From positions 9,857 through 73,856 of the forward strand of contig CAWGAO010000008.1 in the NCBI GenBank assembly GCA_963820595.1: a DNA stretch of 64,000 bases, in the 5' to 3' direction. Below are positions 1,168-30,553 of this stretch, one piece after another. This DNA is from Candidatus Tagabacteria bacterium (GTDB taxonomy: Bacteria > Patescibacteriota > Minisyncoccia > GCA-002779875). A program made the translations under genes and the position numbers. Under the pieces are notes generated by a model. It did no database searches and was not told where the DNA came from. It was given only the letters and a program-made list of their open reading frames with translations. Each line of letters opens with the position of its first letter. Position 1 is the stretch's first letter.

Positions 1168-1353
1168 TTACCAGCTTGATTTCTTTACTCCAGGAATCCT
1201 GCCTTCGTTGGCGAATTCCCTGAAACAAATCCGGCACATGTCGAAATCGCGCATATAGCCTCTTTTTCTGCCGCAACGAAAACATCGCCGCACAACGCGG
1301 CTTTTGTATTTAGGCTTCTTTTGACTTCTTGCGATTACCGATGTCTTTGCCAT
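1168..1353 (-). CDS. rpsN: 30S ribosomal protein S14 type Z (zinc-binding, 61 aa)
   Basis: [33 protein letters not shown]...CRICFRE, CxxC..CxxC. Confidence 0.9.
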
Positions 1354-1439
1354 TTTTGTTTACGAGTGCTAGCGAGTAATTACAAAAATGAGCACCCCGC
1401 TCAAATTTTGCCGCGCTAATCACTCATTATTAATAAATA

Positions 1440-1685
1440 AAGATAAATGTTGTTTATCTCTCGCCGCCTGCGCGTCCCGAACCCCGCTACTATAAATCCT
1501 TCGGATTTAAGTACGGGGCGAGTAGCTTTTAACTACTCTTGGGCGACCTGCCCCGTAGGGAACGCGAAGCGTTATCCTTCGGGGAGCGGGCGGCTATTGC
1601 GCTTCCTCGCAAAATTTGTGCGGGGTCGCCATGTTCTAGAATATAACGGATTCCAGTTATTTTTGCAACACTGACTGAATAAAAT
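1440..1685. repeat. GC-rich structured repeat, copy of family containing CTACGGGGCAGGTCGCCC core (other copy 58380-58560)
   Basis: ~200 nt alignable to rc of 58400-58560 with compensatory substitutions in stems. Confidence 0.5.
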
Positions 1686-1693
1686 TTAAAGAG

Positions 1694-1772
1694 CTTGACC
1701 CCGTTAGAGGCAAGACGCCTTTGGCGTCTGCCGCATTTTCAATGCGGGCCTCTAACGGGGTTGACAAATTTT
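1694..1772 (+). mobile_element. MITE-like palindromic element (ccccgttagagg...cctctaacgggg) ending in outward TTGACA
   Basis: terminal inverted repeats; family of >=7 copies in window. Confidence 0.5.
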
Positions 1773-1829
1773 CCAGTTATGATAGCATAAAATCGGCTTG
1801 AAAAATCAAAACAAAAGGAGGCAAAAACA

Positions 1830-2153
1830 ATGAAAAAGATTGGAAAGATTCTGTTGCTAATTGCAATATTAGCAGTTTATTTGAACTTCGGATGGATGAT
1901 GGGCGCATATTACGCCGACCACGGCTTACCTAAAGCCGAGCAAGGAGTAACCACTTTAGGCAAATTTATATGCGGGCCAAATGCCTGGATGTCTAACGAA
2001 AGCGGGTCTCGTCTCTCGTGGTGTGTTATGTCCTCAATCTGCTGGCCCTTTGGGATGGTTATCTGCGGAGTTAGCTGGATTGTTTACGGCATTTATTATC
2101 TCCTCTGGTTCATTTTTGCCGGCGGAATTGTCAAAACCCTCGGCCTCATCTAA
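1830..2153 (+). CDS. small membrane protein (107 aa), antisense orientation inside the ribosomal operon
   Basis: SD aaaaggagg 8 nt upstream of ATG; two to three hydrophobic helices; followed by hairpin terminator. Confidence 0.6.
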   Translation: MKKIGKILLLIAILAVYLNFGWMMGAYYADHGLPKAEQGVTTLGKFICGPNAWMSNESGSRLSWCVMSSICWPFGMVICGVSWIVYGIYYLLWFIFAGGIVKTLGLI

Positions 2154-2182
2154 ATTAAATTTGACCTAAACCTGATTTAGGT

Positions 2183-2217
2183 CATTAAAAGCCTGCGCTC
2201 AAAAAGCCGGGCTTTTT
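2183..2217 (+). terminator. rho-independent terminator (aaaaagccgggcttttttt)
   Basis: GC stem plus T-run directly after ORF 1830-2153. Confidence 0.6.
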
Positions 2218-2220
2218 TTA

Positions 2221-2413
2221 TGATTGATTTTCTTAGCGAGCGAAGCGAGTTTTGAAAATCATCACCCCCTCTTTTACACTCTCACTCTGTTGCTTCTTTT
2301 TACCATAAGAAATTTTTTGCTTCAAACGCCGTTTAAAATATCCTCGTCTTGTCGTTGTTAAAAGAGGGGGTTCTCAAAAAATATAGTCGTCCCTCGACTT
2401 CGCTCGGGACTCC
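2221..2413 (+). repeat. inverted (+ orientation) copy of mosaic module: palindromic unit (GAGCGAAGCGA loop), arms accccctcttttac / gttaaaagagggggt, leader-like GGTTCTCAAAAAATATAGTCG, second palindromic unit abutting rplE stop
   Basis: direct reading; same order of parts as + strand modules at 41971-42171 and 44245-44488. Confidence 0.65.
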
Positions 2414-2953
2414 TTATTTTTTGGAAAATGGAAATCCTAAAAGGCGAAAAAGTTCAAGGGCTTCTTTTTTTGTTTTTGCGCTGGTGACTATCGTCGCCTG
2501 AAAACCAAAAATCATTTTGATTTCTTCTTCTCCTATTTCCGGAAATATCGTGTGTTCCTTGATGCCGATGCTAAAATTCCCCGCCTCGTCAACGGCATCC
2601 GGATTCAATCCCCTGAAGTCGCCGATTCGAGGAATGGCGATGGCAATGAGTCTGTCCAAAAAATCGTACATTCTCTGACCGCGCAAGGTAACCGAGTAGC
2701 CGGCGAGAGCGCCTTGGCGGATTTTGAAAGACGCGATTGATTTTTTGGCCGGCCGTTTTGCCGGTTTCTGCCCGGCAATCAAAGCCAATTGCTTTTCGAT
2801 AACCTCAATCTGCTTTTCGTCTTTAATGGAACCGACGCCCGTATTAACGACGACTTTAACGATTTTGGGAACGGCCATATCGTTTTTATATCCGAATTTT
2901 TCTTTCATCTTCGGAACCGCTATTTTTTTGTATTTTTCCTTAAGCATTTGCAT
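2414..2953 (-). CDS. rplE: 50S ribosomal protein L5
   Basis: protein ...GQKPAKRPAKKSIASFKIRQGALAGYSVTLRGQRMYDFLDRL... canonical L5. Confidence 0.9.
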   Translation of the reverse strand: MQMLKEKYKKIAVPKMKEKFGYKNDMAVPKIVKVVVNTGVGSIKDEKQIEVIEKQLALIAGQKPAKRPAKKSIASFKIRQGALAGYSVTLRGQRMYDFLDRLIAIAIPRIGDFRGLNPDAVDEAGNFSIGIKEHTIFPEIGEEEIKMIFGFQATIVTSAKTKKEALELFRLLGFPFSKK

Positions 2954-3137
2954 AATAGATTTTTTGAATGAGCGAAGTGAATTTTAGAAAATCATCACCC
3001 CGCCCTCTAAGCACAAATAATTCCTTTTAATTTTATTTCTTACATTAAACATCATCTTCGTAATTTCTCCAATTCTTCACGCATAGAGGGCGGGGTTCTC
3101 AAAAAATATATTCACTTCGTTCATTATTTTTTGGAAC
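2954..3137. repeat. bidirectional module: leader-like box facing rplE ATG on - strand and a second leader-like box facing + strand, arms accccgccctctaagcac / gcatagagggcggggt
   Basis: ATTCACT-containing leader on both sides of the arm pair. Confidence 0.6.
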
Positions 3138-3166
3138 TTGACAAATCTTTTTTTAATTGCTATAAT
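3138..3166 (+). promoter_or_regulatory. consensus sigma70-type promoter TTGACA-17-TATAAT
   Basis: exact hexamers with 17-nt spacer, 45 nt upstream of SD-bearing ORF at 3215. Confidence 0.6.
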
Positions 3167-3214
3167 TAAATTAGCTTGAAAATTGAATAACTTTTATCAA
3201 AGGAGGTGGCTTAA

Positions 3215-3460
3215 ATGAAGGTTGTAATTCCAACGGGGGTCATTTTGACTATTATCGGCTTTCTGGCGTTCAGCGGATTGCCGAATATTTGGCAAAAGAT
3301 CGTTATGTGGCTGCTGGTCGCGGGAACTTTGGTTGGCATGGTCATGATGGGCCGGTATTGTTCTATTTTTTGCCGTCGCAATCATTGTTTGGCCGATTAC
3401 GGCTTCTCTGAAGTCCTGCGTTCCCAAGAAATAGTCCTTACGCTTCCTTCAAATATTTGA
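3215..3460 (+). CDS. small membrane protein (81 aa)
   Basis: SD aaaggagg then ATG; hydrophobic helices. Confidence 0.5.
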   Translation: MKVVIPTGVILTIIGFLAFSGLPNIWQKIVMWLLVAGTLVGMVMMGRYCSIFCRRNHCLADYGFSEVLRSQEIVLTLPSNI

Positions 3461-3754
3461 CCCGCACTTTTTGCAAACGCGGGTCTTATTTTTTCCAAGA
3501 ACCTTATAACCGGCCCGTCTCGGTTTGTTGCAGGTCGGACAAATCAACATCACATTCGAAGCCCTTAACGGCATCGGCACCTGGATTACCTGCCCCTTTT
3601 GACCTTGCTTTTTTGAACGGCTGTGCTTTTTCCTTATATTCACTCCCTCAACTACGACAACATCGCCTGTCGGGAAAACTTTAAGAACTTTCCCGGTTTT
3701 TCCACGATCTTTTCCTGAAATTGCCATTACATTATCATTTTTGCGAATTTTCAT
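3449..3754 (-). CDS. rplX: 50S ribosomal protein L24 with C-terminal Cys4 zinc-ribbon-like tail
   Basis: MKIRKNDNVMAISGKDRGKTGKVLKV... KOW motif; tail CPTC...CKKC. Confidence 0.85.
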   Translation of the reverse strand: MKIRKNDNVMAISGKDRGKTGKVLKVFPTGDVVVVEGVNIRKKHSRSKKQGQKGQVIQVPMPLRASNVMLICPTCNKPRRAGYKVLGKNKTRVCKKCGSNI

Positions 3755-3782
3755 AAATTATTAATGGAGAACAGTTCTCCAT

Positions 3783-4154
3783 CTAAACAACCTCCGGCGC
3801 TAAAGAAATAATTTTCGCGTATCCCCGTTCGCGAAGCTCTCTGGGCATGGGCCCAAAAATACGGCCTGCTTTCGGCTCCTGAGTTTTCGCCTCAAGAATT
3901 ATCACGGCATTATCGTCAAAACGCACATACGAACCGTCTTTTCTGCGGTAAGGCTGGCGCTGACGGCAAACTACCGCTCTAAGCACATCTTTTTTCTTCA
4001 CTGCCTTTCTCGGCTCCGCGGATTTCACGGAAACAACCACAATGTCGCCTATGCGGGCATATCGCCTGCGGCTTCCGCCCGGCACTTTAATAACCTGCAC
4101 GAGTTTTGCCCCGCTGTTATCGGCAACACCTACCATTGAACGAGTTTGAATCAT
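3783..4154 (-). CDS. rplN: 50S ribosomal protein L14
   Basis: [24 protein letters not shown]... canonical L14. Confidence 0.9.
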
Positions 4155-4341
4155 GCCAAAATTATATGAACATTAGCGAATAATAATTTTGCGCACCGAG
4201 CACATAATTTATAGCAACCTTTTTATTAAGATGTTCGAAATTTTTACTAAATCTTTTTTTGAAACTTCACTAAATTTTTCATAAAATTATGTGCTCGGTA
4301 AAGGTTTGGCGCCTATATTTTCTCGTCTAAAACTCGAAAAT
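4155..4341 (-). repeat. mosaic intergenic module (leader box ending at rplN ATG; arms accgagcacataatttat / ataaaattatgtgctcggt; hairpin)
   Basis: arm sequence differs from other copies but the two arms still match each other. Confidence 0.65.
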
Positions 4342-4573
4342 CTAGGCCAATCCCTTTACTTCCCAATGCTTGCCTCTCGACCTTGGTTTTGTTTCCTGAA
4401 TTATCACTTTATCGCCGACCTTATACTCGTTTTTCTCATCGTGCGCCTTATAGCGTTTGCTTGCTTTTCATATATTTTCCGTAAAGAGGATGTTTTGTAT
4501 AGCGCTACACCTCAACGACAACCGTTTTTGCCATTTTATCGGAAACAACAACTCCTTTTAATTTCTTTGCCAT
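4342..4573 (-). pseudogene. rpsQ: 30S ribosomal protein S17, reading frame broken by an in-frame TAG and one frameshift (probably sequence error)
   Basis: rc translation MAKKLKGVVVSDKMAKTVVVEV*RYTKHPLYGKY...; after a 1-nt shift ...[32 protein letters not shown]; expected gene-order position between rpmC and rplN. Confidence 0.7.
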
Positions 4574-4673
4574 ATGATTGATTTTCTTAATGAGCGAAGC
4601 GAGTTTTGAAAATCATCACCCCCTTCTTTTCGCGCAAGCGCGCAAAAGGAGGGGGTTAAGAAAAACATAATCG
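4574..4673 (-). repeat. mosaic module, leader variant containing a palindromic unit (rc GAGCGAAGCGA loop) ending at rpsQ ATG
   Basis: arms aaccccctccttttgcgcgc / gcgcgaaaagaagggggtg. Confidence 0.6.
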
Positions 4674-4862
4674 CTATCGCTCTTTGTTTTTCATTAAAGT
4701 TATAATTCTCGCGATATCTTTTTTTATTTCACGGGCGGCTTTCGTATTTTTGATTTTGCCATGCCCCATCTCAAAACGGAATTTTCTCAAAGCCTCACGC
4801 TTGTCTTTTAGAAGAGCAGCAAGCTCAATTTCGGTTTTTTCTCTTAATTCTTTTATTTTCAT
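4674..4862 (-). CDS. rpmC: 50S ribosomal protein L29
   Basis: MKIKELREKTEIELAALLKDKREALRKFRFE... Confidence 0.85.
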   Translation of the reverse strand: MKIKELREKTEIELAALLKDKREALRKFRFEMGHGKIKNTKAAREIKKDIARIITLMKNKER

Positions 4863-5047
4863 GCCATAATTATATGAACGCTAGTGAATAATAATTTTCG
4901 CACCCCGCCTCTAACGCTTGCGCTCTTTTTATTAAATGATTATCTTGATATTTGCTTCATAATTTTTGTTTAAATTCGTGATAGAGGGCGGGTAAAGGTT
5001 TGGCAACAGAATTTTTCGCCTACGGCTCAAAATTCTGTCCAATTCGC
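4863..5047 (-). repeat. mosaic intergenic module (leader box at rpmC ATG; arms caccccgcctctaacgc / gatagagggcgggt; 3' hairpin)
   Basis: direct reading. Confidence 0.65.
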
Positions 5048-5467
5048 TTAATCTCTCGCAATGATTTTTGTTTTAATGGGAAGTTTTGCCGCGGCTTTTC
5101 GAAGGGCTTCGCGAGCTAAATTTTCCGGAATGCCGTCGATTTCAAAAAGCATCCGTCCCGGCTTAACCGGAACGACATAGCCAGCCGGGTCGCCTTTTCC
5201 GCCGCCCATAGTTACTTCCGGCGGCCGCTGGGTAATGGGTTTGTCCGGGAAAATGCGAATCCACATTCTTCCGCTTTTCTGGACGTAGCGAGTCATAACT
5301 TTTCGAACTGCCTCAATTTGCTGGCTGGTAATCCATTTTTCGCCTTCCGACTTAAGCCCGAAAGAGCCAAAAGCAAGAGTGGTCCCCCGGGTTGCCACTG
5401 TCGGCTTTGCGCGATTTGTCCTCCCGCGCTGCCATTTTCTGTATTTTACTTTCTTTGGATACAGCAT
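5048..5467 (-). CDS. rplP: 50S ribosomal protein L16 (start taken at MLYPKKVKYRK)
   Basis: ...KYRKWQRGRTNRAKPTVATRGTTLAFGSFGLK... canonical L16. Confidence 0.85.
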   Translation of the reverse strand: MLYPKKVKYRKWQRGRTNRAKPTVATRGTTLAFGSFGLKSEGEKWITSQQIEAVRKVMTRYVQKSGRMWIRIFPDKPITQRPPEVTMGGGKGDPAGYVVPVKPGRMLFEIDGIPENLAREALRKAAAKLPIKTKIIARD

Positions 5468-5621
5468 AAATACAAACTTTAGATTAGCAAAATAACCCTT
5501 ATCGCGCAAGCCCCATACATTCGTATGCGTTACGAGGTAAGTCCGTGTTTGCTTTTCTCGGATTTTCGTAGTAAAGATAAGAGAGAAAACTTCTTTTAAA
5601 AAACGGACGGAGGATACGTTA

Positions 5622-6176
5622 TTGTCCAGACATTATGAAAATAAAAAAAGACTCCGCCATTCTCGCAACCGCGGGGAAAAATACGATTCTCATCATCCTT
5701 ATCCGAATTCCAGGACGAAAAAAGGAGATTTTGGAAAATTCGAAGAGCTCCTTTGCTCATTAGAACTGAATACCCTGAAGAAAAAACACAGAGCCTGGCA
5801 CCAATTATTTCTCAATTTTTTTCCCGAAGAAGTGATTTTGGCGATAAAAAAAGCTTTCAGGGCGGGGAAAAAGACTCCTCCCGAAATAATCTCTTTTATC
5901 AAGACTACTCTCGGCCACAGCCAAACTCCGATTGAAGCGACCAAGGCGGATCTGGAAGCCTGGTCCAAGATATTCGGCGCTCGCCAAAACCCGGATAAAA
6001 TTAAGAAAATCATTTTTGAAAACTGGACTTATCCCGACGTCAGAACCATTATCACTAACGGCAAAATTACCAGCGTACTGGTCTTTCTCCCTCGCATACC
6101 AAAAGACCTTGAAATCAGCGTCATCGTTTCCAAAAAAAGCGCGCATTTAAAAATCAGCGAAAAAATTAAAACTTGA
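5622..6176 (+). CDS. hypothetical protein (184 aa), TTG start with SD ggacggagg
   Basis: best-supported ORF among overlapping candidates; no recognisable domain. Confidence 0.4.
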   Translation: MSRHYENKKRLRHSRNRGEKYDSHHPYPNSRTKKGDFGKFEELLCSLELNTLKKKHRAWHQLFLNFFPEEVILAIKKAFRAGKKTPPEIISFIKTTLGHSQTPIEATKADLEAWSKIFGARQNPDKIKKIIFENWTYPDVRTIITNGKITSVLVFLPRIPKDLEISVIVSKKSAHLKISEKIKT

Positions 6177-6223
6177 TAAAGTTTTAAAAAAGAGCGGCCA
6201 ACCATTGAGACGCTCTTTTCTAT

Positions 6224-6598
6224 TTATATCTTTTTCTCTTTCTCCCATTTTTTTTCAAGGCGGGCGATTGCCGCTTCGCCGAATCCGAAATGATGGCCGA
6301 TTTCGTGCCAAACCACTCTGCGGACCATCCGCCTCAATTCTTCAATATCGTGAACGCTCTTTTCGATTGTTGTTTTATAAATAGTGATTTTATCGGGCAA
6401 AACCATATAATAATTCACTCCACGCTGTGTTTGAGGAATACCATGGTAAAGCCCGAGAAGATTTCTTCCCGGCGCTTCGCCTTCTTCCAAAACTATCGCC
6501 ACATTTTTCATTTTCTTCCGAATGGATTTCGGCAACGCTTCCACCGCCTCAACAACTAATTTTTCGAATTCGTCTTTATCCATAAAATCAATCGGCAT
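6224..6598 (-). CDS. zincin-like metallopeptidase family protein (HEIGHHFG motif)
   Basis: WHEIGHHFGFGE motif near C-terminus, ~124 aa, resembles the small 'possible zinc metallopeptidase' family. Confidence 0.6.
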   Translation of the reverse strand: MPIDFMDKDEFEKLVVEAVEALPKSIRKKMKNVAIVLEEGEAPGRNLLGLYHGIPQTQRGVNYYMVLPDKITIYKTTIEKSVHDIEELRRMVRRVVWHEIGHHFGFGEAAIARLEKKWEKEKKI

Positions 6599-6646
6599 AA
6601 TTTTATAGAGAAATTATACTAAATAGTTTAGAATATTAACATTGCC

Positions 6647-7820
6647 ATGTTTGGACTTATTCAACAACTTTTTATAAAAATCGTGTCGGCTATAGCGGGT
6701 CTTATTATCGCCGTCGGCATTGTTCAGATGCCGACTTATGTTTCAGAATACAAAACACCTCCCCATAACAATGCACCCGAAAACATAGCAACGCGGGAAA
6801 TTACGCCGACATCGCAAAAAAGCGGAAAATAATAATTTTGTTCTCCCAAACGAAAATATTTCCCGCCGCCTCGACTACATCTTCTGTTCCGAACAAACGC
6901 AAAAGACAACGCCGGCCGCGCCAGCCGCGCCGACTATTTCCCTAACCGAACTGAATAAACAAGCCAGAAAAACCATTGTTAATATTATTTGCACCAATAA
7001 GGCCGGCGGGCCATTTAATCCGATAACGGGAAGCGGAGTTATCATCAGCCCTAAAGGAGTGATTTTGACTAACGCCCACATCGGCCAGTATTTTCTTTTG
7101 GAAAATTCGCCGGAAGCGGGATATCTGGATTGCACCATCCGCAACGGCGACATCGCCCAGCCTGCTTACGACGCCAAACTTATTTACATTCCTTCTGCTT
7201 GGATTGAAGAAAATGCCGCCAACATTATTCAAGAGGAACCGAAAGGAACAGGAAAAAATGATTACGCTTTCCTACTCATCACCAAATCCATTATCGAAGA
7301 AAAAGAGCTCCCTGCCTCGCCGGCAGGCGGGCCGCCGACTTTCGATTTCACCGAACCGAATTTTGATTTCAATGTCCTTCCTTTTAATTTCCAGGTTCTT
7401 TTAGCGAGCTATCCCGCCGGCTTTATCGGCGGCATCGAAATCCAGAAAGATCTCGGCCTTACATCAACTTTCGCGCCCGTAATCGACTTCTACACTTTCG
7501 CGACGACCGGGCCGGCGACTCTTGACCTGTTTTCGCTCGGCGGAAACATCGTCGCCCAAGGCGGCTCATCCGGCGGCGCGGTCGTAGATACGAGAGACGG
7601 AAAACTGCTTGGGATAATAACGACCTCGAGCGATGCGACGACGACCGCCGGCCGCGTTTTAAACGCCATCACCGTGCCCTATATCAGGCATACTTTTGAA
7701 AAATATACGGGAGACAGTCTTTCTTACTTTATAGACGACCCTGAAACATACGATGTTTTGCCTTCCGCCGAATTCAATCGCATCAAACAGCTTTTAATCG
7801 ACCAGTTGAATAAACTTTAG
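6647..7820 (+). CDS. membrane-anchored trypsin-like serine protease, apparent frameshift near 6790-6830
   Basis: N-terminal signal anchor ORF; after a frame change ...GVILTNAHI... and ...GGSSGGAVVD... (GDSGG-like active-site region). Confidence 0.6.
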
Positions 7821-7844
7821 CAATTAGCAATTAATTTTTCGGGA

Positions 7845-8873
7845 ATGAAATCATTGCCCAACCCGTGGCATCTTAAGAAGAGCCCGGATAATTTATTAAA
7901 AGCCAGTTATATCGAATGGAAATATTTCAATTTTTCCGCACCCTCGGTTTCCGGAATTTTCGTTTACGCTATTTTCGACCCACTGAATATTACCAGCATC
8001 GGCGGCGGAAGAATGGTGGCCAGAATTTTCAGGGATAAAAAAATCTTCGGAGGAGCAAAACGCATCTCCATGAAAAAAATATCGGCTTCGGACAGCAGCG
8101 CTGAAATTAAAATGGACGATTTTGGTTCCATTGCCGTAAATAAAAATAATTACGTAATCAAGGGAAAATTAGGCGGCGTTTCTTGGAACTTGAAATATTC
8201 GCCGCTGGCTCAACCGATTCGGGGATTTTCCAACCTCGGCCTTGATTTTTTAAATCTGGAAAAGGCTTCTTGGGAAATAAAAATGCCGAAAGCCAAAGTT
8301 TCCGGTACGGTGAAAATCGGCAAAAAAAGATTTTCCGTGCGCTCTTTCGGATACACCGATGCCAACTGGGGAAATTTTATTCCCATTACCGCCAAATTTA
8401 ACTGGGCTCAATATAATGACGGCAAAATCAGCATTGTGGCGGGTGAAACGGAAAGCATGGAAATTCGCGGAAAGAAAATCGGACGCTGGACGAAAATATA
8501 CGTAACTTTTGGAAGGCAAAAAATAGCATTTTTGGGAAAAAACGTCAGTATAAAACGCGACAAATGGATGACGATTCCCGGCACAAACATGAAAGCGCCG
8601 AGCATTGCGTCAATTCAAGCTGAAAATAAACAATATGCCCTGCGCCTGGAAGCCCGAAGCCTTTTTTCTGACCCCATAAGATTCGAAATGCCTTTTTCTC
8701 TTCCTTTCAGGCCGGTAATTTTGGAACAGCCAGCGATATTTGCCGGCGCGCTATTTAAAAAAAGCGGTAGTTCTTTAAAACCCGTCTGCAAAATTAAAAG
8801 AAAGGGATTTATGGAATGCACGCTTCGCGAGATAGGATTTTCAAAAAAATTAAAAGTGGGAATTTTAGTCTGA
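7845..8873 (+). CDS. hypothetical protein (342 aa)
   Basis: long intact ORF, no motif recognised. Confidence 0.45.
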   Translation: MKSLPNPWHLKKSPDNLLKASYIEWKYFNFSAPSVSGIFVYAIFDPLNITSIGGGRMVARIFRDKKIFGGAKRISMKKISASDSSAEIKMDDFGSIAVNKNNYVIKGKLGGVSWNLKYSPLAQPIRGFSNLGLDFLNLEKASWEIKMPKAKVSGTVKIGKKRFSVRSFGYTDANWGNFIPITAKFNWAQYNDGKISIVAGETESMEIRGKKIGRWTKIYVTFGRQKIAFLGKNVSIKRDKWMTIPGTNMKAPSIASIQAENKQYALRLEARSLFSDPIRFEMPFSLPFRPVILEQPAIFAGALFKKSGSSLKPVCKIKRKGFMECTLREIGFSKKLKVGILV

Positions 8874-8894
8874 ATATCAGGAAAGGACGTACGT

Positions 8895-8960
8895 TTGACT
8901 TTAGCACGCCAAATTGCTAGAAATTAAGGAAGAAAATTCTTTGAAAAAGCCATCTCGAAA
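8895..8960 (+). promoter_or_regulatory. conserved promoter/5'UTR box P2 (TTGACTTTAG..CAAATTGCTAGAAAT..GAGAAAATTCTTTGAAAAAGG)
   Basis: five near-identical copies upstream of unrelated genes (8895, 10909, 12645, 14093, 14925). Confidence 0.55.
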
Positions 8961-8969
8961 GGAGGAAAA

Positions 8970-10396
8970 ATGGAAAAAAGCAGCCGTATCGAATTACCGA
9001 AAGAAAAAATACCCGTAGCTTGGTACAATATCGTTCCGGATCTTCCCGAATCGCTGCCGCCGCCGAGAGACGAGGAAGCATTGGGAAGATTAGTGAAAGC
9101 CCTTGTCGGCGAATGCCTGAAGCAGGAAATGTCGAATGAAAGATGGATAGCCATCCCGCCCGAACTTATTAAGATTTATGCCGAAATCGGAAGGCCCCGT
9201 CCTCTGACTCAGGGCGAGGAATCTCGAAAAACTCCTCGGCCTTAAGGGTATCGAGCTTTATTTCAAGATGGAAGGCGAAAGCCCGACCGGCAGCCATAAA
9301 CTCAACACCGCCGTTGCCCAAGCATACTTCGCTAAAAAAGCCGGCATCAAAAGGCTGACAACGGAAACGGGCGCCGGCCAATGGGGAACGGCGCTTGCCT
9401 GCGGAGCGAAACTGCAAGATTTGGAATCCACGGTCTATTGGGTGAAATGTGTTTACAAATGGAAAAAGGAAAGAAGAAAATTCATAAAATTTTTCGGGGC
9501 GGAAGTTTTCGCTTCACCCAGTCAAAACACGGAGGCAGGCAGAAAATTTCCTAAAGACCATCCCGGCTCTCTTGCCATCGCGATTTCCGAAGGAATCGAA
9601 GACGCCTTAAGCGACCCGGACGCGAAATATTGCCTTGGCTCGGTGCTTAATCACGTCTTGATGCATCAAACAATCATCGGCCTTGAGACAATAGAACAAC
9701 TCTCAATGATAGACAGGTATCCGGCCGATTATATGATCGCCTGCGTCGGCGGAGGAAGCAATTTCGGAGGCTTCTGTCTTCCGACAATCGGCAAGATTCT
9801 GAAAGAAGGGATAAAAACAAAATGCATTGCCGTCCAGAGCGAGAGTTCGCCCAACCTCATAAAAGGCGTTTATAGATACGACAGGGGAGACCACGCCGAG
9901 CTCACGCCGGAATTAATGATGTACACCCTCGGACATCAATGCGAGATGAAGCCGATAAAGGCTGACGGCCTAAGATATCATGCCGCAGCGCCCATAATCA
10001 GCTCTGCTCAGAAAACTCGGATTCATTGAAGCAGTAAGCTACCCTGCCGATGAAATACGAGTTTTTGAAAGGGCAAAAATTTTCATCGAATCCGAAGGGT
10101 TCCCTCTCGGAACGAAAGATTCGAAAAAGAATATCAAAGAAGCTCTTTTGAGGGCGAAAAAATTTCTTAAAGTGGTCACCGGCACAAGCAATATCCAGGA
10201 AATGTTCGCGGTGAGTAAAGATTTTATAGAAAACAAAATCTTTATTCCGGCGCCGGAATCGGCTTACGCTGTCGCCCACGCGATTGATAAAGCGCTCGAA
10301 TGCAAAAAGGAAAAAAAGAAGGCAGTGATAGTCGCCAATATCAGCGGTCATGGCTTTCTTGATATCGAAGCTTACCGGGAAAAATTAAATCTTTAA
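8970..10396 (+). CDS. trpB: TrpB2-type tryptophan synthase beta-like PLP enzyme, >=2 apparent frameshifts
   Basis: pieces: ...IPVAWYNIVPDLPESLPPP...; ...MEGESPTGSHKLNTAVAQAYFAKKAGIKRLTTETGAGQWG...; C-terminal piece ends ...ISGHGFLDIEAYREKLNL. Confidence 0.7.
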
Positions 10397-10397
10397 A

Positions 10398-10435
10398 TTA
10401 AAAGGCGTTTCGCAAGTTGCGAAACGCCTTTTTAT
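10398..10435 (+). terminator. rho-independent terminator (ggcgtttcgcaagttgcgaaacgccttttt)
   Basis: perfect 11-bp stem plus T-run. Confidence 0.7.
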
Positions 10436-10460
10436 TTGATTTGTAACCGCCCTGACGAAC

Positions 10461-10712
10461 TTAATTGTCAAACGGGAATGGCGAGACTGGCGCGCAATGG
10501 AGGTGGCATTCCGGACATGGCATCGTAGCTTGCAACACTCCCTTTCCTTTTGTTCGGTAAGGTAAAAAAACAGTAGTATCTTCATCCAGCGGAATACCCG
10601 CGAATGAAGGCGCATCTCCCTCTTGAAGCCGGAATTCGCAGCCGCACTTTACGCATTTTCCATACCATCCTTCAAATGGCCATTGTTTATAAGTAGCTCC
10701 GTGATACAAAAC
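10461..10712 (-). CDS. small Cys-rich (zinc-ribbon-like) protein, one apparent frameshift near start
   Basis: SD aaggagg + ATG at 10710-10712; CxxC and CPEC motifs. Confidence 0.45.
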   Translation of the reverse strand, partial: VLYHGATYKQWPFEGWYGKCVKCGCEFRLQEGDAPSFAGIPLDEDTTVFLPYRTKGKGVLQATMPCPECHLHCAPVSPFPFDN

Positions 10713-10904
10713 TCTTAGTCATTTTTTCTCCTCCTTTATTTTTAACATCTATTTTTAAACATCAAAAAATCCAAGACAAAAATAGCACATCTCCGCGCTC
10801 TTCGTCAAGTCAACTCGCTCGGGCGACCCGACAGCCTCGCTCGTAAGCACAGCCGGGAAAAATTATTGCCTGCCCTGAGCGCAGTCGAAGTGAAATCATT
10901 TTTA

Positions 10905-11034: not shown

Positions 11035-12218
11035 GATGAGGGAAGTGGTAATAACCGGCGCGGTAAGAACAGCTATCGGTAATTTTCTCGGCGCATTGAG
11101 TTCTTTCAGCGCAACCGAGTTGGGAGGGCTGGTGATAGAAGAGGCGATAAAAAGATCCGGATATCAAAAAAGAGGATGTTGATGAAGTGATTATGGGAAA
11201 CGTCCTTTCAGCCGGACTGGGACAAAATCCGGCTCGCCAAGCGATGATTAAGGCGGGACTTCCAATGTCGGGAGGAGCCCTGACAATAAATAAAGTTTGC
11301 GGCTCCGGCTTGAAAGCTGTTATGCTGGCGGCTCAAGTCATCATGGCAGGAGACGCGGAAGTGATTGTCGCGGGCGGAATGGAAAGCATGAGCCGAACCC
11401 CTTATTATCTGGAAAACGCAAGAACGGGATATCGGCTTGGGAATGGAAAACTAGTGGACGGGATGGTTCATGACGGCCTTTGGGATGTGGTGAACGATTA
11501 TCCTATGGGGTTCACCGCCGAAATACAGTCGAAAAAATTTAACATCAGCCGGGAAGAACAGGACCGATTTGCTTACGAATCAAATCTTCAAGGCGATGAA
11601 GGCCATACGAGAAGGAAAATTCAAGGAAGAAATCCTCCCGCTCTCAATTCCGCGCGGAAAAGGAGAATTGATTTATTTTGAAATCGATGAGGGACCCCGC
11701 GACCCAGACCTCCAAAAGATGGCCAATTAATGTCCGTCTTTAAAGAAGGCGGCGTTGTCACCGCGGCAAACTCCTCTAAAATCAGCGATGGAGCAAGCGC
11801 TCTGGTCGTGATGTCGAAAAAGAAAGCCAAATCTCTGGGGATGAGGCCTATGGCGAAAATCATAGCACAGGCGGCAGCGGGCGTGGAATTGGAAGATGTC
11901 TTGGTCGCTCCGATTCAATCGATTCCGAAAGTTCTCAAAAAGGCGGGGCTATCTATCGAGGAGATCGATCTTTTTGAAATCAACGAGGCTTTTTCCGCGA
12001 CAACTTTGGCCGTCATCAAAACCTTGGGCATTGATAAAAACGGGTGAATATTCATGGCGGCGCCATCGCATCTGGGCCATCCAATCGGCGCCAGCGGCGC
12101 GAGAATTCTGACCACATTGCTTTACGCGATGAAAGATGGCGGAGCGAAAAGAGGAATGGTTTCTCTTTGTTTGGGCGGCGCGGAAGCCGTAAGTTTGATT
12201 GTCGAACAGATACCATAA
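11035..12218 (+). CDS. acetyl-CoA C-acetyltransferase (thiolase), at least 4 apparent single-nt frameshifts
   Basis: [21 protein letters not shown]...; ...[22 protein letters not shown]...; ...NVNGGAIA([13 protein letters not shown])... recovered only after frame changes. Confidence 0.75.
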
Positions 12219-12268
12219 ATAAGCGCCGTAAAAAATAAGAAAATTCTTTAGAAAAAGGGGGTTAAAAT

Positions 12269-12442
12269 ATGGAAGAGCTACGAAATCGTTTCGACGGCAA
12301 ACCTTGGCTTGGTTATGATGAAACAGAAAATCGTCGGTCAGGGGCCACGGTAAGTATTTTAATGTTGTTGCTGGTTTTTGTGGGGTTTGAGTATTTTCTG
12401 TGTGTAATAAATGAATTTCTTAAATTTTGTTTGACGAGATAA
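12269..12442 (+). CDS. small membrane protein (57 aa)
   Basis: SD aaaggggg + ATG; C-terminal hydrophobic helix; followed by terminator. Confidence 0.4.
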   Translation: MEELRNRFDGKPWLGYDETENRRSGATVSILMLLLVFVGFEYFLCVINEFLKFCLTR

Positions 12443-12454
12443 AAACCTTTAAAG

Positions 12455-12482
12455 CCCTTCGGGGCTTTTTGTTTTGGGGAAT
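12455..12482 (+). terminator. terminator aaagcccttcggggcttttt (copy 1 of 3)
   Basis: same stem-loop reused at 13047 and 14590. Confidence 0.65.
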
Positions 12483-12644
12483 TTAATTTGGGCGACTTAG
12501 CGGAAAGAGCTGGAACTCATTATTTCCTTCAATGCCCTCTTAGAACTTGACAAGAACTTTTGGCTTAATATAATTCATTTGAATCACGATAAGAGGCTAT
12601 CCAAAGGGTTTCGTCCCACGGCAATGCCTCTTTTTTTTATCTTG

Positions 12645-12700
12645 ACTCCCGGCTGTCAAATTGCTAGGAATAACTGAGAAATTTCTTTGAAATACGGAGG
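12645..12700 (+). promoter_or_regulatory. P2 conserved promoter/5'UTR box
   Basis: cttgactcccggctgtcaaattgctaggaataactgagaaatttctttgaaatacggagg. Confidence 0.5.
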
Positions 12701-12704
12701 CATC

Positions 12705-13034
12705 GTGAGAGCAAGAAAAACGACAAAGAAAGTTTCAGTCCGTAAGTCAGGAATAGCAGGCAGGGGTGTTTTTGCGGGAGAGGATATTAAAAAGGGAGAA
12801 TTTATTTTCAAAGCAGGTGATAATTTTGATGTTTTCGTTTTTTTAAATCACTCATGCCGTCCCAACGCGGAATTGATAAGGCAGAGCGAAAGCGCGTTAT
12901 GCGACAAACTTTTTGCCCGACGCAATATAAAAGCCAGAAAAGAAATAACTTTTGATTACAGAAAAACGCGGTGGAGTCATTATTATGACGAGATAGAAGA
13001 AAAAAGCGGCTGTTTTTGTGGCAGATGTAAATAA
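12705..13034 (+). CDS. SET-domain protein (putative protein-lysine methyltransferase), GTG start
   Basis: NHSCRPN motif, ITFDY, and C-terminal CFCGRC post-SET-like Cys cluster. Confidence 0.7.
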   Translation: MRARKTTKKVSVRKSGIAGRGVFAGEDIKKGEFIFKAGDNFDVFVFLNHSCRPNAELIRQSESALCDKLFARRNIKARKEITFDYRKTRWSHYYDEIEEKSGCFCGRCK

Positions 13035-13259
13035 AAAACCGTTCAAAAGCCCTTCGGGGCTTTTTGCTTTTGAGAATTTAATTTGGGTCGCATAGTAGAG
13101 GACGTTAGAACTGTAATCCAGCGACAGCAGGGGTATATTTATATCCCAGATTTAAAACCGACAATGATGAAGATATAACCTATCCTACCCCGCTACTAAC
13201 TATTTCAAAAGGACGGGGTTCGTGATTGATTTTTTAATTAAAGGCTCTACACTTTGGAT

Positions 13260-13883
13260 ATGAAAACATACGCCTTCATAGATGCCTCAAATCTTTTTTA
13301 CGGCGGCGAGAAAAGTCTCGGTTGGAAAATAGACTATAAGAAACTTTTGGAATATCTAAAAGAGAAATACAGCGTTAGCCACGCTTTTTATTTTGGTGGC
13401 GTAGAGATACATAATTTTGAATATGATTACCAAAAAAACGATACTGTTCCGCTCAACGAACTTGAAAAACACCTCAAAACTTTGATTAGTAATGAAGGGT
13501 CAAAGTTAAACGAAGCCGAGCTCTTACTTATCGGACGGCATTTACAAAGAGTTCGCTTTTACCAACGCCTCAATAGCTTTGGCTATAAATTATACCTGAA
13601 ACCAGTTAAACTCTATGACCAAGAGGACGGCACGACTAAGAGAAAAGCTAATTGTGATGTCGATATGGCTTTCCACCTTATGAAGGAAAAAGATAACTTT
13701 AATAGTGCTGTCATTTTATCTGGGGACGGAGATTTCTTGCCAGTGTTAAAATATCTCAAAACTAATAGTAAAGATATGATTATATTGGGTAGGAGCGAGA
13801 GGGCAGCTAAAGAAATTAAGCAATTTGCAGGGAGCAATTTCAAAGACTTTCAATATCTTAGAGAACGCCTCAAAATGGCCTAA
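13260..13883 (+). CDS. NYN-domain (LabA-like) protein, probable RNase
   Basis: AFIDASNLFYGG N-terminal motif and ILSGDGDFLPVL motif typical of NYN/LabA. Confidence 0.65.
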   Translation: MKTYAFIDASNLFYGGEKSLGWKIDYKKLLEYLKEKYSVSHAFYFGGVEIHNFEYDYQKNDTVPLNELEKHLKTLISNEGSKLNEAELLLIGRHLQRVRFYQRLNSFGYKLYLKPVKLYDQEDGTTKRKANCDVDMAFHLMKEKDNFNSAVILSGDGDFLPVLKYLKTNSKDMIILGRSERAAKEIKQFAGSNFKDFQYLRERLKMA

Positions 13884-14145
13884 AAAAACGAAAAGCACCC
13901 ATTTAGGATGCTTCTCACGTTTAGTATCTCCACTATAGCAAGCTGGTTTTTATTGTCAATATCCACTTTTACCCTACCCCGCTACTCACTATTTCTTCGG
14001 AGAAAAACGGGGTGGGCTACGGGACGCATTCAGAACCCTGGATTGGATACAGGTTAGGAAAGAGTTGGATGATTTCGCCTTGCATTTTGAACAACAATTT
14101 GCTATAAATAACTGAGAAAATTCCTTGAAAAGGAGGAAAAGATTG

Positions 14146-14562
14146 AAAGGAAAATATTTTTTGCCTTTTCGCATATCTAAAAATGTAAGCGTTGCTTCGG
14201 CTCCTTACCATAAGAAAGCGAGAAATATGAAACATTGCGTAGATTTTTCTATGCCAGAAGGCACATCTATTTTGGCGTCACGCGAAGGAAGGGTTATTCA
14301 TTGTGAAAGCAGATTTAATAAAAGTTATTCTTCTCCAAAGTATGCCGATAGATGCAATCGTATCATAATTGTTCACGCGGATGGCGATGAATCCGTTTAT
14401 GCTCATCTGAAATGTCATTCTTTGAAGGTAAAAATTGGTGAGTTTGTAAAAAAAGGACAGTTGTTGGGTTTGAGCGGACAAACCGGCTATGCGACTTATC
14501 CGCATTTACATTTCGGAGTTTACGATAAGAACGGGAAAAATAGAAAAATTGATTTCAGATAA
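14146..14562 (+). CDS. M23 (LytM-type) peptidase domain protein
   Basis: HADGDESVYAHL and GQTGYATYPHLHFGVY motifs. Confidence 0.65.
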   Translation, partial: KGKYFLPFRISKNVSVASAPYHKKARNMKHCVDFSMPEGTSILASREGRVIHCESRFNKSYSSPKYADRCNRIIIVHADGDESVYAHLKCHSLKVKIGEFVKKGQLLGLSGQTGYATYPHLHFGVYDKNGKNRKIDFR

Positions 14563-14603
14563 AATATAAAATTACGAGAGCCCTTCGGGGCTTTTTTGTT
14601 TTT

Positions 14604-14792
14604 GAGAATTTAGCCAGCCCCGCACAACAGTTTGCGGGATTTTTCACAGCAAGCCGCTTCGCGGGAAAGGGATGCGGCTATTCGCCGCCCGCGGCTTGCG
14701 AAACTTTTTATATTTTTCGTGTAATGTAATTTTTCAAAAAGAATGCACGGCAAACTGTATGCGGGGCACTCAATTTTGTAAACAGAAAATCG
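14604..14792. repeat. GC-rich palindrome-rich insertion splitting the duplicated boundary sequence
   Basis: gcaagccgc...gcggcttgc and ccccgcacaac...gcggggcac inverted repeats; flanks are continuous with copy at 13066-13110. Confidence 0.45.
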
Positions 14793-14976
14793 CATTCCGA
14801 AGAACGCTATTTTTTGAGCAAAATTGGTGGGTCGCATAGTAGAGGACGTTAGAACTGTAATCCAGAATCAAAATGAGTATGTTTATATACCGGATTTAAT
14901 TCCGCAATTGACAGCAACTCTTTAAGATGCTACGAATTTCTTTGGAAATAAATTCCTTGAAAAGGAGAAAAAAATA

Positions 14977-15291
14977 ATGGTAAAGAATAAAGCATCTATG
15001 ATTGTAAAGGCTCTTGGCCCAAAGGATTTGGAAAGTCTACTGATCGCGGAAAAGAAGAAAGCAAAGCGGGAAATTATAAAAATGAAAATTAACTCTCACT
15101 TTGTTGGGGACGACATTCACCCCGGTTATAATCATTATGCCGTAATAGACCCCCATGAAATTATCACGAAGGAAATTAACGAAAGCGATCTAAGGTCTAT
15201 CGTCCGAGCATACAAAAAAGCCGGCTGGAAAAGAGTTGAAGTTGAGCGTTTAGCATTAGGGAATATGGTTAGATTCACCTTTATACCCTAG
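14977..15291 (+). CDS. hypothetical protein (104 aa)
   Basis: SD aaaaggag + ATG; preceded by P2-like box. Confidence 0.45.
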   Translation: MVKNKASMIVKALGPKDLESLLIAEKKKAKREIIKMKINSHFVGDDIHPGYNHYAVIDPHEIITKEINESDLRSIVRAYKKAGWKRVEVERLALGNMVRFTFIP

Positions 15292-15402
15292 AAGATTTTG
15301 CAGTTCGCAATGGCTTAAGCGTAAATCCTTATAAAATAAAAATTATAACAAAAAGCCGCCTGGTTTTCCCGAGCGGTTTTTTTATTTTTCCAAAATCGCT
15401 TG

Positions 15403-15477
15403 GGTGCTCGATCGGACTTGAACCGACAACCACCAGGTCCACAACCTGGAGCTCTAACCAATTGAGCTACGAGCACC
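15403..15477 (-). tRNA. tRNA-His (GTG) with extra 5' G(-1)
   Basis: rc gives G-GTGCTCGTAGCTCAATTGGTTAGAGCTCCAGGTTGTGGACCTGG...GGTTCAAGTCCGATCGAGCAC; anticodon loop TTGTGGA. Confidence 0.85.
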
Positions 15478-15533
15478 ATAAAAACGGCTGCTTCAAAGCT
15501 TTCAAAATCCAACAGCTGTAAAATATTTACTTA

Positions 15534-17399: not shown

Positions 17400-17640
17400 T
17401 CTTTTTCTAAAAATCAAGGAGCGTAAGCGACTATGATTTTTGAGAACCCCGCCTTAATTTTACCGTCCACATGTAATCTAAGTTCAGAGAATTAAAAAGT
17501 TTTATTTGCTTGTTGCGAGGCGCGGACGGCGAATAGCCGCACCCCTGCCTGCCGGCAGGCAGGCCTTTTGCGCGAAGCGCCGAGCCGATACATTGGATTG
17601 TAAAATTAAGGCGGGGGTGGATTTACAAAAATTTTTTCGC
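17400..17640 (+). repeat. mosaic module copy (palindromic unit with GAGCGTAAGCGA loop; arms ccccgccttaatttta / taaaattaaggcgggggtg)
   Basis: direct reading; not next to a translation gene. Confidence 0.55.
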
Positions 17641-22159: not shown

Positions 22160-22285
22160 GTAGTCCCGATAATTCTAAATTTGAATTATCGAGGATCCTC
22201 GATTTTCTAGCGAAAATCGGGATGAAATGGACCCCGAAGTATAAACCTTCGGTTTAACTACGGGGCAGGTATCACTTAAAAATAA
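22160..22285 (+). ncRNA. structured leader upstream of tRNA-Arg (three-way stem arrangement, shares aactacggggcaggt with repeat family at 1440/58380)
   Basis: outer stem cccctgtagt/actacgggg enclosing two hairpins; preceded by TTGTCA-16-TAAAAT. Confidence 0.35.
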
Positions 22286-23903: not shown

Positions 23904-24044
23904 AAGAACGCGGGCTGGAGTCCCGACGCGCTTCGCGGTCGGGGTCCCGACTGAAACGTCGGGATATGATGGCATCCCCGAAGGAGTCGCCTTCGGCGAC
24001 CCTACGGGGAAAATCGGGACACGCCACGCCCGCCCACCTTTTAT

Positions 24045-30500: not shown

Positions 30501-30553
30501 ATCTTTCTACCTCCTTGTAGAATTAGTGCTTAGCATCTCCGGCAAGCCCCGTT

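Follow-up and report, generated by a model that had tools for sequence, protein, structure and literature searches.

We analyzed a window of 64,000 nucleotides from a Candidatus Tagabacteria contig (CAWGAO010000008.1, positions 9,857 to 73,856; "the window" denotes this whole stretch) and focused on a block at 12240-15480, in which five small plus-strand open reading frames (ORFs) are followed by a minus-strand tRNA-His. The genes are separated by repeated boundary sequences, which appear to be attachment-site (att) junctions that carry the 3' end of a large serine recombinase (LSR) gene. The window is bacterial chromosome (EF-G, a MurD-like ligase, ClpB, a NiFe hydrogenase), and the named homologues of the 81-aa gene adjoining tRNA-His come from Patescibacteria, Candidatus Tagabacteria or Giovannonibacteria. 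ORF calls, Pfam, ARAGORN and Rfam agreed with the first-pass annotation on the five short genes and tRNA-His, which lie as follows.

12269-12442, plus strand: 57-aa ORF with a hydrophobic stretch, the last gene left of the first junction
12641-13034, plus strand: SET cassette, with promoter TTGACT-17-TAGGAAT, the shared 5' untranslated region (5'UTR) and the SET ORF
12687-13034, plus strand: SET-domain ORF (Pfam PF00856, E 3.5e-14), probable start GTG at 12706
13254-13883, plus strand: NYN-domain gene (Pfam PF01936, E 1.9e-18), probable start ATG at 13260
14079-14562, plus strand: M23 cassette, with promoter TTGCAT-17-TATAAAT overlapping the end of tail D (see below), the shared 5'UTR and the M23 ORF
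14125-14562, plus strand: Peptidase_M23 ORF (Pfam PF01551, E 6.5e-21)
14908-15291, plus strand: 104-aa cassette, with promoter TTGACA-17-TACGAAT inside the end of tail C (see below), the shared 5'UTR and the 104-aa ORF
14977-15291, plus strand: 104-aa ORF, no Pfam match
15402-15476, minus strand: tRNA-His(GTG), found by ARAGORN and Rfam; its 3' end would be the right arm of attB

The 57-aa ORF has no Pfam match and is preceded by GGGGG, which is Shine-Dalgarno-like. Any two successive junctions enclose one promoter-gene-terminator unit; every cassette is served by a promoter of its own, and the 3' end of each tail in the window is overlapped by a promoter. Copies of the promoter/5'UTR module lie at 12641-12692, at 14079-14137 and, in part, at 14950-14975, and the module precedes unrelated genes in the window, in L002 and in L011-L016 (L numbers denote contigs used for comparison, P numbers proteins). 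The promoter and 5'UTR of M23 are 93% identical to a copy in L002 serving an unrelated gene. Promoters of this type also stand before the non-cassette genes at 8894 and 10905, and the type is therefore a genome-wide consensus rather than specific to the block.

Three kinds of repeat delimit these genes. The 18-mer terminator AGCCCTTCGGGGCTTTTT occurs in three exact copies (12453, 13048 and 14579), where shuffled sequences led us to expect 0.01 and none reached three. Two exact copies of the boundary 37-mer GGGTCGCATAGTAGAGGACGTTAGAACTGTAATCCAG, with 0 expected, start at 13085 and 14829, and the similarity around them reaches 84 nt at 82% identity (13084-13167 and 14828-14911). A diverged third boundary copy follows the first terminator (12451-12517, 78% identical over 67 nt); its identity lies mostly in the terminator and GAATTTAATTTGGG, and the right-hand part is about 50% identical by hand count. 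The hairpin motif CCTACCCCGCTACTNACTATTTC occurs twice (13184 and 13973) and brackets the NYN gene; the duplicated motif at its flanks measures 26-45 nt. One terminator-side copy is interrupted at 14613-14819 by a GC-rich palindromic insert, which holds a member of a dispersed repeat family (17515-17546, 44385-44422, 57203-57251) and is flanked by the imperfect direct repeat TTTTTGAGAA / TTTTTTGAGCAAA, as fits an insert that split one boundary copy. Thus, the three terminators, two full and one partial boundaries, two hairpins and the split boundary that had been read from the sequence at first pass were all recovered, and the two full boundary copies proved significantly similar on alignment.

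Origin of the boundary sequence

The boundary reads as an open frame (GRIVEDVRTVIQRQQGYIYIPDL...), and the differences between the window and the related contig L001 are almost all synonymous. A protein search with three tail variants concatenated as the query found P0121, a 124-aa fragment at a contig edge that ends in ...FPIWGRIVEDVRTIIQRQQEYIYIPDLRPIA / ...PIWGRIVEDVRTIIQRQQEYIYIPDLRPIA. An exhaustive HMMER search with P0121 returned proteins of about 500-550 aa with Resolvase and Recombinase domains, most of them also with Zn_ribbon_recom, which are LSRs. A hidden Markov model (HMM) of the LSR tail, built from database proteins only, matched the window at 13074-13175 (E 4.6e-16) and 14818-14922 (E 5.9e-16) and nothing else in the 64 kb; a broad tail profile also recognised the tails B and C listed below, and neither A nor D. 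These results indicate that the boundary is the terminal stretch of an LSR gene, its last 26-30 codons, and that a TGGGT core joins it to the terminator from the 3' flank of tRNA-His; the boundaries are very probably attL junctions of LSRs. The putative arms and neighbouring elements in the block are the following.

12451-12492, plus strand: left arm 1, with hairpin AAAGCCCTTCGGGGCTTT, T-run, GGGGAATTTAATT spacer and TTTGGG core; homologous to the tRNA-His flank of L005
12493-12550, plus strand: right arm type A (CGACTTAGCGGAAAGAGCTGGAACTCATTAT...), with a counterpart in L002 at 12752-12705
13045-13088, plus strand: left arm 2, with terminator, TTTTGAGAATTTAATT spacer and TGGGT core (13084-13088)
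13086-13178, plus strand: LSR tail B, GRIVEDVRTVIQRQQGYIYIPDLKPTMMKI and stop; right arm of attL-B, the boundary of the first-pass annotation; parents P0121/P0125
13187-13219, plus strand: hairpin motif copy 1, ACCCCGCTACTAACTATTTC...CGGGGT, just after tail B
13973-14013, plus strand: hairpin motif copy 2, after the NYN gene; left arm of junction D, ending in CGGGGT; z -3.2
14011-14115, plus strand: LSR tail D, GGLRDAFRTLDWIQVRKELDDFALHFEQQFAINN and stop; probable right arm of attL-D, from another LSR subfamily
14576-14612, plus strand: left arm 3, with terminator and TTTTTGAGAATTTA, then interrupted
14613-14819, no strand assigned: GC-rich palindromic insert, fold -65 kcal/mol, splitting left arm 3
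14820-14832, plus strand: remainder of left arm 3 (AAAATTGG) and TGGGT core (14828-14832)
14830-14925, plus strand: LSR tail C, GRIVEDVRTVIQNQNEYVYIPDLIPQLTATL and stop; right arm of attL-C; HMM E 5.9e-16
15352-15405, plus strand: left arm of attB, with terminator hairpin, TTTTTATTTTTCCAAAATCGC spacer and TTGGGT core abutting the tRNA

The block therefore reads, from left to right, as the 57-aa ORF, a left arm joined to A, SET, a left arm joined to B, NYN, the hairpin joined to D, M23, the left arm split by the GC-rich insert and joined to C, the 104-aa ORF, and a last left arm joined to tRNA-His. We read the combination of terminator, GAGAATTTAATT, TGGGT and boundary as attL with high confidence. 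The repeated terminator is best read as the native tRNA-His flank, which integration has displaced, rather than as an independent part: in L005 it stands right next to tRNA-His, in L007-L010 it lies with 25/25 identity beyond a GIY-YIG gene, and in L011 and L016 it belongs to attL. With left arm, TTGGGT and tRNA-His, the last junction looks like an unoccupied attB, and its spacer resembles the left arm of attL in L001 (TTTTATTTTCCAAAAATTCTC/TGGGT; a slash marks a junction here and below). An additional junction directly follows hairpin copy 2 (...CGGGGT/GGGCTACGGGACGCATTCAGAACC...), and its translation LRDAFRTLDWIQVRKEL matches the C-terminus LRDGFRTLDWAEVYEDL of the LSR P0256 (tblastn, E 9e-6); tail D is thus a probable right arm of an attL from a different LSR subfamily. 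The right arm A is probably an old attL right arm too, but this assignment is doubtful. In L017, the same hairpin motif stands directly after the stop codon of an LSR gene, and copy 1 in the window has the matching position. Among the reused parts that the first-pass annotation had proposed, the repeats of terminator, boundary and hairpin stood, while the promoter proved to be of a general type and the terminator is reread here as tRNA flank.

The tails have diverged as coding sequence. Estimated on only 22 codons, and hence indicative, the nonsynonymous (dN) and synonymous (dS) divergence of tail B was dN 0.02 and dS 0.62 against L001, dN 0.06 and dS 1.14 against L017, and dN 0.17 and dS 0.39 against tail C, with differences that respect the codon frame; no frameshifts or stop codons separate the copies compared. 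The differences therefore arose while the tails belonged to working recombinase genes. Purifying selection, together with the other subfamily of tail D, argues for separate integrations and not for duplication in place.

The first seven tail codons (ATAGTAGAGGACGTTAGAAC) are invariant, four-fold degenerate sites included, in the B-type copies (B and C of the window, L001, L017 and the copy at 7553 in L018), and over all copies found they vary at two third-codon positions only (ATA/ATC and GAC/GAT). This is the pattern expected of a recombinase binding half-site. The stretch also resembles the antisense of the tRNA T-arm (GGACTTGAACC), a resemblance that seems better explained as an attP mimicking attB.

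Two other identities of the boundary were considered and rejected. As to a tRNA or tRNA-like element, ARAGORN finds only tRNA-His in the block and folding by hand gave no conserved stems; cmscan against Rfam up to E = 10 gave no match on the boundaries. As to a repeat of a diversity-generating retroelement, the differences between B and C are not adenine-specific and no reverse transcriptase was noticed near the block.

Attachment sites in related genomes

An exact scan for a 24-mer and a 21-mer of the boundary gave 0 matches in genome and viral contigs and one in metagenome contigs, namely L001, and a search for related loci in genome contigs based on the deacetylase gene gave no relatives. 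L001 is syntenic with the window and carries the boundary directly after a different gene and terminator. The syntenic contigs L001, L002 and L003-L016 keep tRNA-His and the 81-aa gene, and L001, L003, L005 and L006 also keep the deacetylase, with entirely different small genes on the other side of tRNA-His. None of the five cassette genes has a homologue in the contigs of the syntenic relatives (tblastn, E <= 1e-4), L005 included, where the 82-aa neighbour protein is 99% identical. The block is hypervariable, because relatives keep its flanks and lack homologues of its five genes; variation of cassettes among relatives had been anticipated at first pass.

All four types of att junction were found among the relatives, sharing the (T)GGGT core, with LSR coding sequence or terminator and spacer as left arms and LSR tail or tRNA-His as right arms. 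For attP, L017 has ...cctatatggggt/CGCATAGTAGAGG within an intact LSR gene (...FPIW/GRIVEDVRT...IPDLRP and stop). Over 100 residues P0125 shares 96% identity with P0121, but its C-terminus is ...FPIWGDLWDSNP; its DNA in L022 reads ...TATGGGGT/GACCTATGGGATTCGAACCC, and the right part is the reverse complement of a tRNA 3' end. L017 has the same left side as L022 and continues with /CGCATAGTAGAGGACG..., which gives the intact gene. In attR (L003, L022 and L023), the left side of the LSR gene is joined to the antisense of a tRNA 3' end; in attB (window, L005 and L001), terminator and spacer are joined to tRNA-His; in attL (B and C of the window, L001, L011 and L023), terminator and spacer are joined to the tail. 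Orphan ORFs of the type IVEDVRT...IPDL and recombinase ORFs that run into tRNAs would accordingly be integration junctions, not separate genes or gene-calling errors.

Occupied and unoccupied sites could be compared directly. In L003, an LSR body abuts the syntenic tRNA-His and is 93% identical to P0125 over the last 83 codons; L003 and L004, which come from different samples, share 99.7% identity over the 694 nt that lead to the 3' end of tRNA-His and then diverge. L018 and L019 are 99.99% identical over 10,256 nt up to ...TTTGGCAGGG, after which L018 continues with tRNA-Trp and L019 with an LSR tail, which points to an attB of the L018 type at tRNA-Trp that is still in use. L023 holds a complete integrated element of about 6.3 kb, in the order host gene, terminator, TAAAA/TGGGT/tail, then LSR/TGGGGT/tRNA-His. 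At least 67 of the 120 closest LSR homologues, from related Patescibacteria, end in a peptide of the type W-R-x-G-R-D-S-N-P-R, which is tRNA antisense (W being the CCA triplet), while about 10-20 of the 120 keep the intact tail (9 by regular expression, more by eye). The named LSR homologues come from Patescibacteria.

L018 appears to be a second, larger example of the same type of array. Upstream of tRNA-Trp, at 1-10255, it carries about 20 small and mostly unannotated genes (Fic, NYN, DUF5674 and others) amid dense repeats of 50-130 nt, with no LSR present. About six tails were found, four of them clear (3601, 6668, 7553 and 10007) and two either degenerate or with an insert (1990 and 9560). 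Four left-arm copies of about 55 nt are 92-96% identical over about 54 nt to the arm of the live attB; three of them abut a tail or the tRNA, the last being the live attB itself, and the copy at 5241 abuts neither.

Some features recur beside the tails and the tRNA in these contigs. Independent copies of the LSR tail core carry GC-rich hairpins of 18-34 nt inserted at one and the same position (GAGGAYG^TTAGAAC), at about 10900 in L002 and at about 1990, 6687 and 10027 in L018, and the arms of the L002 hairpin match the ends of the insert at 14613-14819 of the window; these look like repeated insertions of a small palindromic element that prefers this target. Non-orthologous NYN genes lie beside LSR tails in three lineages (window 13254-13883; L011 3388-4074, and L014-L016; L018 6720-7307), in three different orientations and positions, with no mutual blastp match at E <= 1e-3 or with 32% identity. 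Genes of homing-endonuclease type stand beside tRNA-His, namely a LAGLIDADG_3 gene between the 83-aa gene and tRNA-His in L011-L016 (e.g. L011 2294-2737) and a GIY-YIG gene between tRNA-His and its terminator in L007-L010 (e.g. L007 at about 10425-10748).

Assembly of the array and comparison with known systems

Taken together, the block is probably a composite island without a recombinase, consisting of a row of attL scars and a live attB at the 3' end of tRNA-His and built by serial integration of LSR elements. In the free element, the LSR gene would be intact with attP inside its own 3' end. Integration would proceed by crossover in the (T)GGGT core, a sequence also found at the extreme 3' end of the tRNA, and the tRNA would stay whole. 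At attR, about 520 LSR codons would remain beside the tRNA and read into its antisense strand; at attL, the last 26-30 codons would be moved to the far end of the element and joined to the former tRNA flank, i.e. terminator and A/T-rich spacer. The order in the window would then be attL-A (doubtful), attL-B, attL-D, attL-C and the unoccupied attB, as junctions of successive integrations with the oldest presumably farthest from the tRNA. The array of separately expressed single-gene units with reused delimiters, assembled by recombination, that the first-pass annotation had suggested is thereby supported. Its statement that integrase and core sites are missing is not supported: the 64 kb contain no LSR body, but the boundaries are junctions with a TGGGT core and an LSR 3' end, matching an LSR at the same tRNA-His in L003.

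How single cassettes without a recombinase come to stand between the junctions may be explained by a shuttle, modelled on SCCmec leaving ACME behind. An LSR element would excise from a donor via an outer attL, taking along an inner cassette with its inner attL, integrate at the tRNA of a new cell and later leave via its own inner attL, depositing tail, promoter, gene and terminator/arm and restoring attB. This step seems to us nearly as probable as its opposite. The exchange of the tail for tRNA-encoded residues may be a built-in directionality switch, the tRNA-tailed LSR may remain active, and homologous exchange between strains, with tails and tRNA as anchors, may contribute.

Several points weigh against this account. 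No sequence pair here documents removal of an LSR with clean restoration of attB, and the 64-kb window has no LSR body, as tblastn with 9 LSRs finds only tails. The junction assignments are all comparative; right arm A matches neither LSR tail profiles nor LSR C-termini, junction D rests on one 17-aa match to the single protein P0256, and the dN/dS comparison is short. LSRs normally recombine attP with attB, and the standard rules exclude attP x attR; the site could thus be used repeatedly only if attB were restored each time. An HMM of the LSR region upstream of the core (P-arm) matched none of the left arms; with left arms of no detectable LSR origin, serial integration into attR followed by deletion is also unsupported. 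The Tagabacteria strains L011-L016 differ by just two ordinary deletions, of 233 nt and 405 nt, and the model leaves the hairpin duplication around the NYN gene unexplained. Two related ideas were dropped: shuffling of cassettes among L011-L016 is ruled out by these two deletions being the only differences, and an origin of the left arms as LSR coding remnants, suggested by single tblastn matches (E 0.005-0.02), is unsupported by the profile.

The best-surviving alternative, which we consider unlikely, is tandem accretion with random decay, in which complete LSR elements integrated serially and ordinary deletions removed the recombinases and most cargo, leaving one gene each by chance and with no shuttling. 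Tandem integrations with degenerate remnants are known from the tRNA islands of Prochlorococcus (10.1101/2020.12.28.424599), several frameshifted genes in the window make decay plausible, and the differences among L011-L016 are plain microhomology deletions, one of which ends at the start of a boundary. But decay of this kind needs four or five independent deletions that end exactly at the core, each leaving the terminator and A/T spacer of one of two conserved types; the profile detected no LSR remnant in the left arms. It also leaves no attB for the next element after the first integration, and the regular succession of left arm and tail ending in a live attB recurs in L018 with arms 92-96% identical. 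Duplication of regulatory modules in place and their shuffling by homologous recombination, with no site-specific recombinase, is far less probable. The nearly identical terminators, the 37/37 identity of the B and C cores and the promoter/5'UTR module before unrelated genes agree with it; yet the boundary is homologous to LSR 3' ends and has diverged in a codon-respecting way with dN/dS < 1, where neutral copies would gain frameshifts and stops, junction D carries the tail of a different LSR subfamily, and strain pairs differ exactly at the core. A function of the boundary in place, whether it is translated as a micro-ORF of some 30 aa or regulates the downstream promoter as an RNA or DNA element, is scarcely credible, for although the frame is open in several copies with mostly synonymous substitutions and a promoter overlaps the 3' end of each window tail, there is no Shine-Dalgarno sequence or conserved start, the upstream context differs in every copy, a 34-nt hairpin and two stop codons interrupt the L002 frame, Rfam gave no match, opposite-strand genes follow the tail in other genomes, and the end of a 550-aa protein fully explains the frame.

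With serial LSR integration as the preferred account, the composite islands of the staphylococcal cassette chromosome (SCC) are the closest in mechanism that we found by analogy. CcrAB LSRs excise SCCmec alone or together with recombinase-less neighbours, and modules are left behind with attB restored (PMC7029739). SCC islands (SCCmec/ACME/COMER; CcrAB, 3' end of rlmH/orfX) share with the array an LSR whose fixed target is the 3' end of a conserved gene and tandem modules that are each bounded by a copy of the site, some of them recombinase-less and moved by the recombinase of a neighbour. Such tandem modules at one LSR attB were found in the window (four junctions and a live attB, no LSR) and in L018. 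Unlike in SCC, the target here is the 3' end of tRNA-His or tRNA-Trp and not of the protein gene rlmH, attP lies inside the recombinase ORF, whose tail is lost on integration, and the units are single small genes of about 0.6-1.5 kb with their own promoter in Patescibacteria hosts. As for LSR elements in general, the short core shared by exchanged arms and near-identical strains with occupied and unoccupied sites (L003/L004, L019/L018) were both observed, and an LSR with Resolvase, Recombinase and zinc ribbon at the edge of the element was found in L003, L022 and L023, not in the window.

For the split gene, the closest analogues appear to be the archaeal 'suicidal' integrases of the SSV1/pTN3/pT26-2 type, which are tyrosine recombinases and were stated to be exclusive to archaea in a 2021 review (PMC8371274). 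As here, attP lies in the integrase ORF, the target is a tRNA, the gene is split to flank the element and orphan fragments lie beside tRNAs. In contrast, the SSV1-type recombinase (PF16795) is split mid-gene and inactivated, whereas the bacterial serine recombinase gives up just the last 26-30 residues in exchange for a tRNA-encoded tail. Self-splitting is seen in the intact gene of L017, the genes of L022 and L003 truncated into a tRNA, both ends on one contig in L023 and the tRNA-fused homologues counted above; the Pfam domains are Resolvase, Recombinase and Zn_ribbon_recom rather than PF16795, and the hosts are Patescibacteria rather than archaea.

The window locus itself would be a decayed or 'parked' tRNA-linked island, which is a known kind. 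In Prochlorococcus tycheposons, new arrivals at a tRNA push older elements inward, and fragmented integrases and att remnants are scattered (10.1101/2020.12.28.424599). They are likewise tRNA-linked islands made by successive integrations, but use mostly tyrosine integrases and partial tRNA repeats, where the array has a 5-6-nt core, tails of recombinase genes and single-gene units. Integrons and the promoter-early stem-loop (PeSL) modules of T4-type phages, reportedly described by Arbiol et al. in 2010, resemble the array in form only. Integrons have ordered single-gene cassettes with recombination sites between them and an adjacent primary insertion site; unlike them, the array has no attC palindromes, no common Pc, a promoter and terminator per cassette, and sites that are attL hybrids of LSRs. 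No recombinase ORF was noticed among the ORFs of 11-17 kb or the 20 Pfam-scanned proteins of the window, no search being aimed at tyrosine (IntI-type) recombinases; the junctions of terminator and LSR tail showed no attC-type symmetry and no Rfam match. PeSL modules share the arrangement of small genes, each between a reused promoter and a stem-loop terminator, within a hyperplastic region, and their shuffling is thought to use homologous recombination in phage genomes, whereas the array lies in a bacterial chromosome and its repeats hold site-specific recombination junctions.

No account of this LSR behaviour emerged from a literature search that covered serine recombinases, the position of attP, self-splitting integrases and Patescibacteria (Candidate Phyla Radiation), though its coverage was incomplete and an earlier description is possible. 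As far as we found, a bacterial serine integrase with attP in its own 3' end and a tail swapped for tRNA-encoded residues is a previously unreported variant of the LSR family. If true, this would be a first record of self-splitting integrases beyond archaea and beyond the tyrosine family, extending a behaviour that the 2021 review (PMC8371274) limits to archaeal tyrosine integrases. The comparatively defined attP/attB pairs of the family, with a 5-6-nt core at tRNA ends, could serve as integration tools.

Little is understood of the way in which candidate-phyla bacteria, with their tiny genomes and few recognised mobile elements, acquire accessory genes. The locus and its relatives point to a concrete route, in which LSR elements at tRNA 3' ends leave ordered, expressed single-gene cassettes. 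More broadly, and with at least as much doubt as for the shuttle itself, we propose that Patescibacteria carry an undescribed cassette-accretion system, in which LSRs with an attP in their own 3' end that mimics a tRNA 3' end swap their tail for tRNA-encoded residues at tRNA genes and ferry single-gene cassettes via alternative attL sites, giving integron-like (attL)n-attB arrays beside tRNA-His, tRNA-Trp and probably other tRNAs. If true, this could be a major route of gene flux in the reduced genomes of Patescibacteria.

Further features of the window

Two short transcription units may lie within the block. Between junction A and the SET promoter (12547-12640, plus strand), a perfect 12/12 sigma-70-type promoter (TTGACA-16-TATAAT) precedes, by about 45 nt, a hairpin with T8 (fold -15.6 kcal/mol, z -1.9), and its candidate product is a small RNA of about 55 nt. 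Where the NYN gene has its 3' end (13880-13959, minus strand), a promoter TTGACA-16-TATAGT with TG (11/12) accompanies a strong 12-bp hairpin terminator (fold -19 kcal/mol, z -4.9), which could be a very short antisense RNA or a bidirectional terminator.

Three genes of the window appear broken. The thiolase gene at 11036-12218 falls into at least 4 reading frames, ClpB (30864-33394, minus strand) is split into ORFs of 507 aa and 339 aa, and the gene at 8972-10400, TrpB-like by eye, is also frameshifted in appearance; either the genes are true pseudogenes or the assembly contains indel errors there. An 85-nt sequence occurs twice immediately downstream of the 3' end of ClpB (30547-30631 and 30733-30817, 82% identical, 186 nt apart).

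A leader of about 50-60 nt, (A)GGGCGGGGTGCTCAAAAATTATAGTC...CTCCTTAATTTTTGGCATG, reaches the start codon of about ten unrelated genes and has no obvious Shine-Dalgarno sequence. Its copies are as follows.

373-431, 961-1019, 4152-4210 and 4860-4918: leader copies of minus-strand genes
3090-3136, 41457-41503, 42125-42171, 44443-44489 and 58596-58642, plus strand: leader copies

Finally, a conserved hairpin, CCCCGAAG...CTACGGGGCAGGT, was found at 22232-22270, 23976-24014 and 58421-58459. Two of the copies lie about 20-30 nt upstream of tRNA-Arg and tRNA-Pro, and the hairpin may be a tRNA promoter or processing element.

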